NCBI GenBank assembly: GCA_963719945.1 | Contig: CAVRDX010000003.1 | Location: 294,173-358,172 of the forward strand | From: an uncultured Thermoplasmata archaeon | GTDB lineage: Archaea; Thermoplasmatota; Thermoplasmata; UBA10834 | DNA length: 64,000 nt | Direction of reading: 5' to 3' | Part shown: piece by piece, positions 12,766-15,834 of the stretch | Numbering within the stretch: the stretch's first letter is position 1 | Layout: each line of letters starts with the position of its first letter | The notes under the pieces: generated by a model | The model's input: the letters and a program-made list of their open reading frames with translations, nothing else | Database searches by the model: none | What the model was told of the DNA's origin: nothing | Program-made: the position numbers and the translations under genes

Positions 12766-14073
12766 ATGAATCGTCTGACATATGTCGGACTCGAAGGGAT
12801 GGGCATGGTATTTGGGATCGGCAAAAAGGATGCTCAAGATGTGCAAGGCTCGCCTCAGTCCGGAGGTGTTCCATACAGACTCGCATCTTACGATCACGAC
12901 CACGAAGGCAAGAAGTTCAGGTCCAGCAATGTTGTATACAGCTTCTGGAGCGCATCGAAGTACGTGCTGATACTATCGCTCATCCTGTGGTGGCTCCCTA
13001 TGTTCGGCCAGATGATCGCCGGATATGTCGGAGGCAGAAGAGCGGGTGGTCCTTGGAAAGGCGTCGCCGCGTCCATCTTGCCTGTCGTCTGTCTATATGT
13101 CGTCATGACTGGCTTCGACAGCGGCTTCTTCCCATCGCACTTCTTCGGAGTGGCGATCGCACCGGCCGCGATAGGCGCGTCTCTGAGCGAGAGCATTCCA
13201 TTCTTCTCACCGTATGTCCACTTCTCGTCTGAATACATCGGGGCTTTCGTTGATACTCTCTCGGGTGCGAGCTCATACGGTATCAACACATACATCCTGA
13301 CAGTCGCCTTCGCATATGTCGGCGGAATACTTGCGGAGCAGAACAGGAGAGAGATCGAGTTCAACTCCGGTTCGATGATGTCCAACACCACTGTCTTGGT
13401 TGCCGACAACGCCCAACAACAGCAGCAACTACCGTCCTATGCGACGCCGAACCACAGTCTGGCACACATGTTCAGCGCAATGTTCCCTTGGTCCAAGGAT
13501 CATCAGATGGCGCAACAGGGTCATCTCACAGCAGCTCATGCATCGCACTGGGATGGCGCAGTCCCGATGAGGTACGGCGAGGTCGACCATCATGGAAGAG
13601 CCGTTGCGGCGCCAATGCTTCCTGGTCATATGGATGTGCAGGATGAGCCTGCGACGTTCAGTCAAGCGACAGCGAAGAGGGCGAAGCACAGGACCGAGAG
13701 GAAGCCACATCAGCGCAAATCGGATCCATGGGTGAGGGCCCAGAGGCGCGCGAATCAGAGCTACTCATCTGCTCGAAGGTTCAGGATGCCGGAGCCAGAG
13801 GGCGAGGACGAGCCCGCTGTTCCTGCACAGAGGACACCGAGAAACGCCTCGCGCAATGTGCAAAGATACGTACCTGGGGACACACGGTCGATAAAGAAGG
13901 CTCGTAGGGTCATCGAGGCGGAATGGGGCAGAAGCTCTTCTCCACCGGTTCATCATAGATCGACTCGCTCATCGTCCAGACATCATGAACTGAGTGATTC
14001 GGAAGTCCCCGAACTCCCGCATCAGCAGCCGAAGGCACACAAACCGTCATCCAATCACTGGGACTCTATCTGA
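12766..14073 (+). CDS. Membrane protein with N-terminal TM domain and long low-complexity tail (start may be about 12799)
   Basis: WWLPMFGQMIAGYVGGRRAG TM motif; Q/H/R/S/P-rich C-terminal half ending HWDSI. Confidence 0.75.
   Translation: MNRLTYVGLEGMGMVFGIGKKDAQDVQGSPQSGGVPYRLASYDHDHEGKKFRSSNVVYSFWSASKYVLILSLILWWLPMFGQMIAGYVGGRRAGGPWKGVAASILPVVCLYVVMTGFDSGFFPSHFFGVAIAPAAIGASLSESIPFFSPYVHFSSEYIGAFVDTLSGASSYGINTYILTVAFAYVGGILAEQNRREIEFNSGSMMSNTTVLVADNAQQQQQLPSYATPNHSLAHMFSAMFPWSKDHQMAQQGHLTAAHASHWDGAVPMRYGEVDHHGRAVAAPMLPGHMDVQDEPATFSQATAKRAKHRTERKPHQRKSDPWVRAQRRANQSYSSARRFRMPEPEGEDEPAVPAQRTPRNASRNVQRYVPGDTRSIKKARRVIEAEWGRSSSPPVHHRSTRSSSRHHELSDSEVPELPHQQPKAHKPSSNHWDSI
12773..12790. promoter_or_regulatory. 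Tandem palindromic heptamers, candidate RHH operator
   Basis: GTCTGAC-ATAT-GTCGGAC downstream of BRE/TATA-like CGAAAAGTAATAAATA; another GTCTGAC at 12703-12709. Confidence 0.5.
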
Positions 14074-14093
14074 GCCCTGTTCAATCACAGGGC
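14074..14093 (+). terminator. Hairpin right after the stop codon, possible terminator
   Basis: GCCCTGT-TCAATC-ACAGGGC. Confidence 0.4.
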
Positions 14094-14098
14094 GTTCT

Positions 14099-14131
14099 GT
14101 CTCAAGAGGTTCTGTCAATAATCGGGTGGTG
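14099..14131. repeat. Target-site duplication plus terminal inverted repeat (downstream of tnpB)
   Basis: GTCTCAAGA then GGTTCTGTCAATAATCGGGTGGTG. Confidence 0.88.
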
Positions 14132-15449
14132 GTCATGATGACCACCCCACCGATTGACTCGTTCCATTCGGCTCCGACCGTGCGCCCATCTCTGGGTCGC
14201 AGAGGGTCATCACCACGTCATGTTGGAACGCATCCGGGAAGGCTGTATTCAGCAGGTTTATGCCAGCGTTGACATGCCTGTCGGCACGCCAACCGCACTC
14301 ACACTCGAACTCGGAGCCCATTCGGGAATGATTCAATCTCCCACATATCGGGCACCTCCTGCTGCTGTTGTATGGGTCGACCTTGATGATTGGCACGCCC
14401 ATCCAGGCCGCCTTGTACTCGATGATGTTGTGCAGTTTCCTCCGAGGCCATGAGCTCAACCGTCGGTTGAGCGATTTGCCGCGCTTCCGCGCCGTCATCC
14501 CACTCAGGTCCTCGAGCACAATCGTCGATTTATGCTCCTCCGCGAAGCCGAGGACCGCATTGGCCACTTGGTGCATGCGATACTCTATCCGATGATGCTC
14601 TCTCTTCCCCTCTCTGCGACACAACCGCCTCGATGTCCGCCGGTCGTGCGCCTTCCTCTTCTGAAGACGCTTACGTCGGTCGTGATGCCGTGCCTGGATG
14701 ATTGCGACATCGGTATATGCTGCTTGAACTGGCGCACTTTCCCCTTTGCTCAGGAGCACGCCGTCCAAGGATCGTTCATTGGTATCGAGAGACAGGGCCG
14801 TCTCTGGAATGTATGATTTAGGTGGACTCTTCCTGAAGACTATTATGACCCTGTCTGGAAGTAGGGTCAGTGAACCGAGGGAAAGGGATTTGTCGTTCAG
14901 AAACCCACGATGGTAATCGCTCAGGACGAGCCTCAGCTTCACATGACATCCAGCCCGTATCGGAAGGTCGACCACGCCTTCCTCCCGATCGAGCTTGTAT
15001 GCCTGGTTCTCCGCCTTCATCATCAGTCGCCGCACATATGGGAATGCGACGGACCGGCCCCTTTCCCCAACGCCTTCGCAGGTTCTTCAGCACCGAACCC
15101 GCGACCTCGAACGAGGATACCAGATGCTGGGCATAGATGTTCGGATGCTCCTTCCTGAAGTCTTTGTACGCCAGCTTCACCAGGGCATTTCTGGAGGTGA
15201 CCTTTGCCTGGAGGCCGGCCCTGATCGCGCAATTGGCCGCCAGGCGGAAATCCTCCATGAGCATCCTGGCCTCAAACGGGAGCTCCCCATGAATGTGGAA
15301 CACTACCGCTCTGTGGAGCATCTAATACGGTATCTGGCCAGGGACATATCCATCACCTGGCTACATGCATGCTACTCATGCGATCGATGAGATATTCATG
15401 TCATCGGGAAAGGCACCATCGACAACACCACCCGAAAATTGACAGAACC
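14108..15449 (-). mobile_element. Non-autonomous tnpB-only transposon with 24-bp TIRs and 9-bp TSD
   Basis: TIRs 14108-14131 and 15426-15449 (22/24 identical); flanking direct repeat GTCTCAAGA at 14099-14107 and 15450-15458; no transposase inside. Confidence 0.88.
14133..15321 (-). pseudogene. tnpB: TnpB-family RNA-guided endonuclease, split by one extra base near the GGG at 15040-15042 (395 aa if repaired)
   Basis: RuvC-I SLDTN, RuvC-II IVLEDL, IEYKAAWMG, VDPYNSSRRCPICG zinc finger, RuvC-III-like ADRHVNAGINL; removing one base gives ..RRIPYVRRLMMK.. Confidence 0.88.
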
Positions 15450-15458
15450 GTCTCAAGA
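15426..15458. repeat. Terminal inverted repeat plus target-site duplication (upstream of tnpB)
   Basis: CACCACCCGAAAATTGACAGAACC (reverse complement GGTTCTGTCAATTTTCGGGTGGTG) then GTCTCAAGA. Confidence 0.88.
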
Positions 15459-15531
15459 CAACTTTTTTATCCAAACACGACTTCAGTCATTTATAGTATG
15501 AAGCGTCCTCGGGATGCTTGGAGCGGATCTA

Positions 15532-15834
15532 ATGTTCTGCAAGAGTTGCAAAGCCCTTCTTTTTCCGAACAAGGATGGCAAGTTGGTCTGTAGGAAATGC
15601 GGGGCCGAGATGACGCCGACCGAGGAGCAGACGGTTATCACTCACAAATCCCGTGACAGGGAGGTAGCTGTCGTCGGCGAGATTTCAGGGACGCTACCGA
15701 CAACGGATATCGAATGCCCTGATTGCGGCAACAGGACCGCTTATTGGGTGCTCAGGCAGACCCGAGCAGCCGATGAACCGGCAACTAGGATATACAGATG
15801 CACGAAATGCTCTCACTCTTGGAGAGAGTATTAG
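15532..15834 (+). CDS. tfs: Transcription factor S (TFS/RpoM)
   Basis: MFCKSC, CRKCG, CPDCG, QTRAADEP acidic hairpin, CTKCSHSWREY. Confidence 0.95.
   Translation: MFCKSCKALLFPNKDGKLVCRKCGAEMTPTEEQTVITHKSRDREVAVVGEISGTLPTTDIECPDCGNRTAYWVLRQTRAADEPATRIYRCTKCSHSWREY

Follow-up and report, generated by a model that had tools for sequence, protein, structure and literature searches.

A decayed transposon with IS6-type ends and tnpB as its only gene belongs to a widespread archaeal family of non-autonomous elements

Here, we report a family of archaeal transposons that carry tnpB, the gene of an RNA-guided protein, between the inverted repeats of the IS6 family of insertion sequences (IS). One of its members lies in the 64,000-nt stretch of DNA analysed here (the window; G000:C3:294173-358172), which comes from an uncultured Thermoplasmata archaeon with a genome of 1.78 Mb in 4 contigs, 87% complete. 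The element occupies positions 14108-15449 of the window, encodes tnpB only and has no DDE transposase gene of its own. In our judgement it is probably a decayed non-autonomous transposon with the ends of an IS6-family (DDE) element, in which tnpB and a guide-RNA scaffold have replaced the transposase gene. Related elements are widespread in archaea, and the window element is a decayed member of this family of IS6-ended, tnpB-carrying non-autonomous transposons.

The element is framed by a right-end (RE) repeat, GGTTCTGTCAATAATCGGGTGGTG, at 14108-14131 (plus strand) on the 3' side of tnpB, and by its inverted left-end (LE) partner, GGTTCTGTCAATTTTCGGGTGGTG, at 15426-15449 (minus strand) on the 5' side. 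The two match in 22 of 24 positions and their complementarity continues imperfectly to 33 nt (82%); the end pattern occurs at two places in the window and in none of 100 shuffles. The 9-mer GTCTCAAGA directly adjoins both ends, at 14099-14107 on the RE side and at 15450-15458 on the LE side, and the sole gene between the repeats is tnpB on the minus strand (PF07282). The start GGTTCTGTTGCA... is one that we take to open the repeats of IS257 and IS1216 too. Both window ends read GGTTCTGT... and have the GG tips and the cTGTt core that make up the published IS6 signature (PMC7986276). The whole lies in the spacer before the gene tfs, between a hairpin at 14075-14092 and a T-run and TATA-like stretch that precedes tfs. 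The initial annotation had described the unit with its 22-of-24 ends, the 9-mer on each flank and tnpB as the only gene, and had placed it between a terminator-like hairpin and the TATA-like box of tfs; on all these points the window sequence bears it out.

Empty alleles prove that the repeated 9-mer arose by target-site duplication. In two species of the same genus (G036 and G037) the orthologous spacer before tfs is uninterrupted, and each of these holds a single 9-mer, GTTTCAAGG or GTTTCAAGA. In the empty allele the T-run, now at 15463-15468, follows the hairpin, so the element has split what was one terminator-like hairpin/T-run unit. The same genome harbours four copies of the element, of which three are complete and have different 9-bp duplications, and hence stem from three insertion events: the window copy; a copy of 1,053 bp with an internal deletion, flanked by GGCGAATGT (C1:22251-23303); and a copy of 1,374 bp with an intact 409-aa TnpB, flanked by CCACTCAGA (C1:372213-373586). 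The fourth, which ends at C1:173317, has had its 5' end replaced. The comparison was extended to 46 genomes of one GTDB family, all of them metagenome-assembled genomes (MAGs) of uncultured Thermoplasmata. Of 47 de-duplicated independent insertions, oriented by tnpB, 24 retain at least 7 of the 9 positions of the duplication. Both the empty alleles and the further tnpB copies with the same ends and different duplications, for which a search had been proposed, are thus at hand, the latter in numbers well beyond the two siblings named here. Together these data show that the element inserted via a 9-bp staggered cut.

The ends are those found beside transposase genes of the same lineage. A PF13610 search of the family detected a transposase remnant in two genomes (G040 and G045), the 3' end of which adjoins GGTTCTGTCTAGCCATCGGGTG. 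A full-length metagenomic relative, P0004 (87% identical), scores 137 bits against the NCBIfam model NF033587 'IS6 family transposase' (cut-off 125) and also exceeds the cut-off of PF13610; the stop codon of its gene is followed by GGTTCTGGTGCATTAGCGGGTG, which matches the RE of the tnpB element L121 in 21 of 22 positions. About 20 further metagenomic transposase copies have the same RE, in at least three unrelated flanks. Two elements of 362-364 bp (L070 in G002, and L240) have both repeats around transposase-coding fragments, and their LE and RE variants are those of the tnpB elements L098 and L063. The inverted repeats that enclose tnpB therefore also bound a DDE transposase gene, and from the shared ends it follows that tnpB takes the place of this gene, in the same orientation. 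This shows that the window ends are the ends found beside IS6-family transposase genes of this lineage. IS6 had been one of the four DDE families named in the initial annotation, and its reading of the unit as a non-autonomous DDE-type tnpB element moved in trans gains support from the IS6 ends, the empty sites and the duplications at the sibling copies.

Several observations weigh against this account of the transposon. The duplication measures 9 bp in the window, at the sibling copies and across the family, while that of canonical IS6 elements measures 8 bp (PMC7986276), and about half of the 47 insertions have no recognisable duplication. The latter are compatible with recombination between copies and are not diagnostic of a replicative cointegrate mechanism. 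Transposase copies inside the order are all fragments of at most 198 aa, the close full-length metagenomic copies have the RE repeat only, and the search yielded no transposase gene flanked by two intact repeats and a 9-bp duplication. Of the predicted DDE transposase with matching ends, the genes and remnants that share the ends have thus been found, and a copy complete in both repeats and duplication has not. Full-length transposases of other Thermoplasmata, 50-59% identical, had no convincing repeat pair, and a unit of 2,204 bp (L161/L222:601-2804) has a repeat pair matching in 16 of 22 positions and no duplication. The element's own genome (87% complete) gave no tblastn match to either transposase type, and the copies residing there are probably stranded, since no IS6-family transposase was detected beside them in that genome; a search of viral contigs found no relative of the IS6-like transposase either.

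The length of the duplication also bears on the question of whether another DDE family with GG-tipped repeats and 8-9-bp duplications (IS1, IS1595 or IS256) moves the element and the likeness to IS6 ends is convergent. A 9-bp duplication is typical of IS1 or IS903 and not of IS6, and P0004 itself has a weak match to an IS1/IS1595-type N-terminal zinc-binding domain and a sub-threshold match to IS1. We nevertheless regard convergence as very unlikely: the sole transposase genes found joined to the repeats pass both the IS6 equivalog model and PF13610 (in genomes that were not searched for IS1, IS1595 and IS256), and it is an IS6-like gene of which deletion remnants lie between both repeats.

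The partner transposase has some features of its own. It is about 387-390 aa long (L213, L217, L218, L194, L195; L161/L222) and has, in front of the IS6 DDE core, a SWIM-like CxC...CxH finger at its N-terminus and a second zinc ribbon. Divergently transcribed from it is a small gene for a zinc-ribbon or AbrB-like protein, and the spacer between the two has many TAGGTA/TACCTA palindromes. Throughout the genus and the family the IS6-like transposase gene or its remnant keeps a fixed location, immediately upstream of an ftsZ paralogue's TATA box (L137, L139, L165-L167, L171, L189, L209, L233, L234, L240, L241); some metagenomic contigs have the whole gene, and in the MAGs it has decayed to 100-198 aa. 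It appears to go back to a single ancient insertion, which may be a former resident source of transposase. An intact frame of 436 aa in G037 (L138:736-2046; contig C12, at about 178 kb) with a zinc ribbon, a helix-turn-helix and an IS240-type DDE region is 32% identical to the partner transposase; no family repeats surround it, and a decayed gene of the partner type is located about 4 kb away.

Across the 46 genomes, the two-block repeat, consisting of GGTTCTGT and TCGGGTGGT with a variable spacer between them, was found in 25. At the loci examined, it bounds tnpB-only elements of 1.31-1.51 kb, elements of 165-460 bp, or isolated and truncated remnants, including remnants of the transposase. 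About 160 nt of the 5' side of tnpB and about 190 nt of its 3' side survive in the short elements, which align to its 5' leader and 3' coding region, including the codons for DRHINA. As they retain remnants of tnpB coding sequence, they arose from the tnpB element by deletion and did not give rise to it. The data show that the family has transposed many times within this group of archaea and has spawned short deletion derivatives. The same architecture recurs in Nitrososphaerota MAGs (L131-L133), with TnpBs that are only 32-35% identical. A loose end pattern run over all species genomes matched unrelated bacteria and was too unspecific for mapping the distribution, and in viral contigs six isolated matches to the end pattern were judged compatible with chance.

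Short elements with the same repeats in many genomes are also what would be expected if the repeats belonged to an independent miniature inverted-repeat transposable element (MITE) into which an ordinary IS200/IS605-type tnpB of the IS1341 group had inserted once, the case that the initial annotation had put forward as fatal to its own proposal. The origin of the short elements from the tnpB element contradicts this. In each of the 12 elements compared, which represent 12 subfamilies with protein differences of up to about 40%, 25-34 nt separate the tnpB stop codon from the tip, and this leaves no room for IS605 ends. The predicted RNA scaffold incorporates the repeat itself, and the architecture recurs with the distant TnpBs of Nitrososphaerota. 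The Y1 transposase TnpA (PF01797), moreover, is found in none of the 12 genomes of the genus, this one included at its 87% completeness. A MITE with a single captured tnpB is accordingly an explanation in which we place almost no credence.

In G003 a 2-kb unit between family repeats (L067:194-2210; G003:C15:140393-142409) holds a 380-aa frame with a signal-peptide-like N-terminus and the 3' fragment of the IS6-like transposase gene, with the RE repeat of another transposase remnant directly beside it; the unit may be a pseudo-compound transposon of the IS6 style or a swap of cargo. At L213:2559-2588 the repeat of a second element, GGTTCTGTCACTTTTCGGGTC, begins 9 nt past the RE of a transposase-bearing copy, from which it follows that elements of the family can land next to each other. 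Within the element's own genome, the window copy and C1:22251-23303 are 99% identical over their 5' 300 nt and only 87% in their 3' parts, a mosaic that indicates recombination or gene conversion between copies.

Concerning its cargo, the window copy is decayed in both parts, a correction to the initial annotation. The tnpB pseudogene (14133-15321, minus strand) is split into two frames of 300 and 167 aa (14133-15035 and 14818-15321). When aligned with sibling copies, it has an extra G in the run at 15040-15042, the frameshift that splits it, and a deletion of 33 nt at about 14230, with which the RNA scaffold has lost a covarying hairpin. Intact sibling TnpBs have 404-428 aa. With ratios of non-synonymous to synonymous substitution of 0.10-0.18 over codons 1-330, they are shown to be under purifying selection. 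The assignment to TnpB, with its C-terminal RuvC and zinc-ribbon region, is supported by 68 bits against PF07282 (cut-off 26), 64 bits against TIGR01766 (cut-off 32) and 97.5 bits against NF040570, slightly below its cut-off of 100; the best match in the PDB is 9nzp, a TnpB. The RuvC triad, on the other hand, is not a complete D-E-D. The RuvC-II Glu aligns (LEDL), and the RuvC-I Asp (LDTN) is read from the sequence only. In RuvC-III the window copy has DRHVNA, and DRH(I/V)NA is found in the 10 of 12 siblings that were matched by a motif search; in alignments with 9nzp and 9nzq (solved TnpB/Cas12f sequences), the His in this motif falls on their catalytic Asp. Branches with a conserved Asp-to-His change in RuvC-III are described by Altae-Tran et al. 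(2023; PMC10691335). The TnpBs studied here resemble these RIIIr branches in a replacement that is conserved across a clade; they differ in keeping the zinc finger and in being transposon-borne.

With an RNase-H fold and an altered RuvC-III, TnpB might itself catalyse transposition and render the element autonomous. In the 46 family genomes the repeats at the examined loci bound only tnpB elements and their derivatives, besides decayed transposase remnants, and the conserved His could be read in the same sense. Yet the same repeats end IS6-family transposase genes, and short derivatives without tnpB have moved too, so that we hold an autonomous TnpB transposon to be extremely improbable.

The second part of the cargo is a predicted RNA. 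The last 200 nt or so of the tnpB elements are conserved at the nucleotide level across subfamilies (alignment A1), and the synonymous rate in this tail of tnpB is 3- to 6-fold lower. RNAalifold predicts 40 pairs, 16 of them with compensatory changes, and conservation ends exactly at ...CAGAACC, beyond which the flanks are unrelated. By these comparative criteria, a structured RNA is predicted to overlap the 3' end of tnpB and to stop at the tip of the element; from the point at which conservation stops, the scaffold would end at the repeat tip, and the duplicated 9-mer would form the beginning of the guide. Together with the selection on tnpB, the compensatory changes point to a functional TnpB and RNA in the siblings. 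In the window the candidate omega-RNA scaffold spans 14108-14276 on the minus strand (5' limit approximate), overlaps both the 3' end of tnpB and the RE repeat, and includes a terminal hairpin at 14128-14146 (minus strand). An invariant GCAUGACGUGAUGAUGA in the scaffold (14160-14200 of the window, minus strand; columns 170-190 of A1) contains a box-C or K-turn-like RUGAUGA motif, which by analogy with many archaeal RNAs suggests binding of L7Ae. An Rfam search with two intact elements assigned the scaffold to no known RNA family. Its only match, at L092:3637-3904 (minus strand), was a sub-threshold one to HgcG, a family of H/ACA guide RNAs (34 bits against a gathering score of 77); it overlaps the first 10 nt of an LE and otherwise lies outside the tnpB element.

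The most interesting open point of the analysis is a new observation on the tnpB 5' side of the insertions only. In 40 of the 47 insertions, TT occupies positions -12/-11 from the LE, one base outside the duplication and 10 nt from the element, against a background of 5% (binomial p ~1e-45). At -10 the base is G, T or C, at -13 A hardly ever occurs, and the stretch from -20 to -15 is TATAAR-like; on the RE side of these insertions, the sequence beyond the duplication has no mirror motif. In the window the motif is TTG at 15459-15461 (minus strand), directly outside the duplication, and it predates the insertion, since the empty allele has it too. The motif is kept by all three complete copies in the genome and by the short derivatives, and it is a candidate for the target-adjacent motif (TAM) of TnpB or for a target motif of the transposase.

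From these parts, a mode of propagation may be proposed. An IS6-family transposase encoded elsewhere, about 387-390 aa long and with extra N-terminal zinc fingers, would bind the 24-bp repeats and move the element in trans. The scaffold would be transcribed out of the RE, with a guide that starts with the 9-bp duplication and runs into the flank; in the window copy its first 9 nt would be duplication copy 1, read on the minus strand. As TT(G/T/C) lies outside the LE duplication, the empty allele would consist of motif, 9-mer and flank, a full match to the guide, whereas the occupied allele would match it for 9 nt only. TnpB would then cut empty alleles, and repair from an occupied copy of the chromosome would spread or keep the element. 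This geometry would preserve the homing logic of IS605 in a target-duplicating transposon, in that the order of motif, 9-bp duplication and element, with a guide drawn from the second copy of the duplication, offers a way to retain recognition of the empty allele.

The nuclease side of this proposal meets difficulties of its own. The His in place of the RuvC-III Asp leaves nuclease activity unproven. IS6 elements are replicative and non-excising, and the usual rationale for TnpB, repair at the donor site, is not directly applicable to them. The motif lies 3 nt from the TATA-like stretch, and two derivatives of 165 bp that lack most of the RNA scaffold are nevertheless flanked by TT; the motif may reflect either where the transposase prefers to insert or a piece of a host promoter. 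It is quite possible, if short of probable, that TT marks no more than the insertion site of the transposase, or a tolerated site just upstream of the core promoter, with its TFB-recognition element (BRE) and TATA box, of a host gene reading outward. Besides the 165-bp derivatives, several features fit this explanation. The TATAAR-like stretch lies at -20 to -15 outside the LE, and the opposite strand resembles AA(BRE)-N3-TTATA; by a crude frame analysis, in 31 of 40 cases the longest open frame next to the LE points outward, and candidate start codons cluster 30-90 nt outside the LE. L070, an element with a transposase remnant, has TTC at the same place. What a promoter explains less well is the constancy of TT, about 90%, against about 55% for the TATA-like positions, since the usual archaeal promoter logos show the reverse. 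TT also persists where the TATA-like stretch is weak (L084, L093, L077), and tolerance alone leaves the single-base phasing and the fixed orientation unexplained. Moreover, a TAM and a transposase target would be compatible readings if the TAM had co-evolved with the target, as in IS605. A preference of the transposase and selection by TnpB are not separable here and both may hold. IS6-like relatives in Dehalococcoidia that lack TnpB were considered as a control for TT, and no GG-tipped repeats were definable in them.

Going beyond the proposed homing, the target choice of the transposase might be coupled to recognition by TnpB. TnpB with its RNA, or promoter-bound factors, would steer insertion, or the TAM would have co-evolved with the target, and the result would be a gene-drive-like homing in polyploid archaea. 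We consider this unlikely. If it were true, the element would insert one base downstream of TTB in fixed orientation and just upstream of host core promoters, and a non-excising transposon would still yield a guide that cuts the empty allele only.

The pairing of TnpB with DDE transposases is not new in itself, contrary to the initial annotation, which knew of no standard class of this kind. Altae-Tran et al. (2023, PNAS; PMC10691335) describe six DDE-associated TnpB branches (DDE-1 to DDE-6), all with inverted terminal repeats, and infer that solo TnpBs with the same ends move in trans. The elements reported here share with those, as described there, repeats common to transposase-bearing elements, a tnpB 3' end within 250 bp of the tip and solo copies presumed to be mobilised in trans. 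They extend the 2023 pairing to a new partner family, IS6, and are not a new category. To our knowledge, none of ISL2, IS630 and IS1031 makes 8-9-bp duplications. These three are listed as TnpB partners in a review of 2026 (PMC13565253), and IS630 is the only partner named in the main text of Altae-Tran et al. (2023; PMC10691335), which does not describe an offset TT motif outside a duplication. IS6 is thus outside the published names, although an IS6-like branch may be among DDE-1 to DDE-5; our literature search found no paper linking TnpB with IS6, and the partner families of DDE-1 to DDE-5, given in the supplement of PMC10691335, were outside its reach. IS6 elements as reviewed (IS26, IS257 and archaeal clades) are 0.7-0.9 kb long, carry a transposase gene of their own and produce 8-bp duplications, and one passenger-carrying member is reported, with no mention of TnpB (Varani et al. 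2021; PMC7986276). The present elements agree with that family in their GG-tipped repeats with the cTGTt core, in a related PF13610/NF033587 transposase with the same ends and in short deletion derivatives. They depart from it in the 9-bp duplication, in the cargo of tnpB and RNA, and in a partner transposase of about 390 aa with added zinc fingers.

Compared with the IS1341 group of IS200/IS605, they have in common a single tnpB, a scaffold overlapping its 3' end, a presumed flank-derived guide and a short T-rich motif on the LE side. Members of that group, however, lack inverted repeats, have subterminal hairpins, make no duplication, insert directly 3' of a 4-5-nt motif and depend on the Y1 TnpA, whereas here repeats and duplication are present, the motif is parted from the LE by the 9-bp duplication, and that enzyme was found in none of the 12 genomes of the genus. 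Fanzors in eukaryotic DDE transposons (Bao and Jurka 2013; PMC3627910) likewise are TnpB-family cargo within inverted repeats and target duplications; they belong to eukaryotes or viruses and have partners from other superfamilies, and the likeness is one of analogy and not of shown descent.

TnpB is the ancestor of Cas12 and is thought to persist by restoring IS605 and IS607 elements after their scarless excision. In the elements described here, the TnpB module rides a transposon with another chemistry, one that makes target duplications and, by the known biology of its family, does not excise. They provide a testable model for RNA-guided nucleases that ride DDE transposons, a question that applies to eukaryotic Fanzors too. 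Their sequences would also make them a source of compact archaeal TnpBs in which an Asp-to-His variant of the active site is conserved and the boundary between scaffold and guide is well defined.

The remaining features of the locus concern its flanks. The hairpin CCCTGT/ACAGGG at 14075-14092 (plus strand), supported by the sequence and the empty-site alignment, comes after an upstream gene at 12766-14073. The untranslated region of the left end (15322-15425, minus strand) extends from the LE repeat to the start of tnpB and belongs to the side of which about 160 nt are kept in the short derivatives. On the other side of the LE, the A/T-rich, TATA-like stretch before tfs, CTTTTTTATC (15462-15471, plus strand), resembles the TATAAR-like enrichment found family-wide at 15-20 nt outside the LE. 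Self-comparison of the genome detected no IS-like repeat other than the copies of the element. A 2.2-kb repeat (C1:142210-144448 and C1:155626-157864) was considered as a carrier of the transposase and dismissed, no transposase being involved by the look of its translations, without a library search. Its two segments are direct repeats, 98.7% identical and 13 kb apart, and each appears from the translations to encode a nucleotidyltransferase-like protein of 286 aa and a helix-turn-helix-like protein of 314 aa. The frame of tfs is listed as 15514-15834 with an ATG at 15514, while the MFCKSC... start conserved in TFS-type proteins corresponds to the ATG at 15532, and a second TATA-like box, TTTATAG, is found near tfs at 15490-15496.

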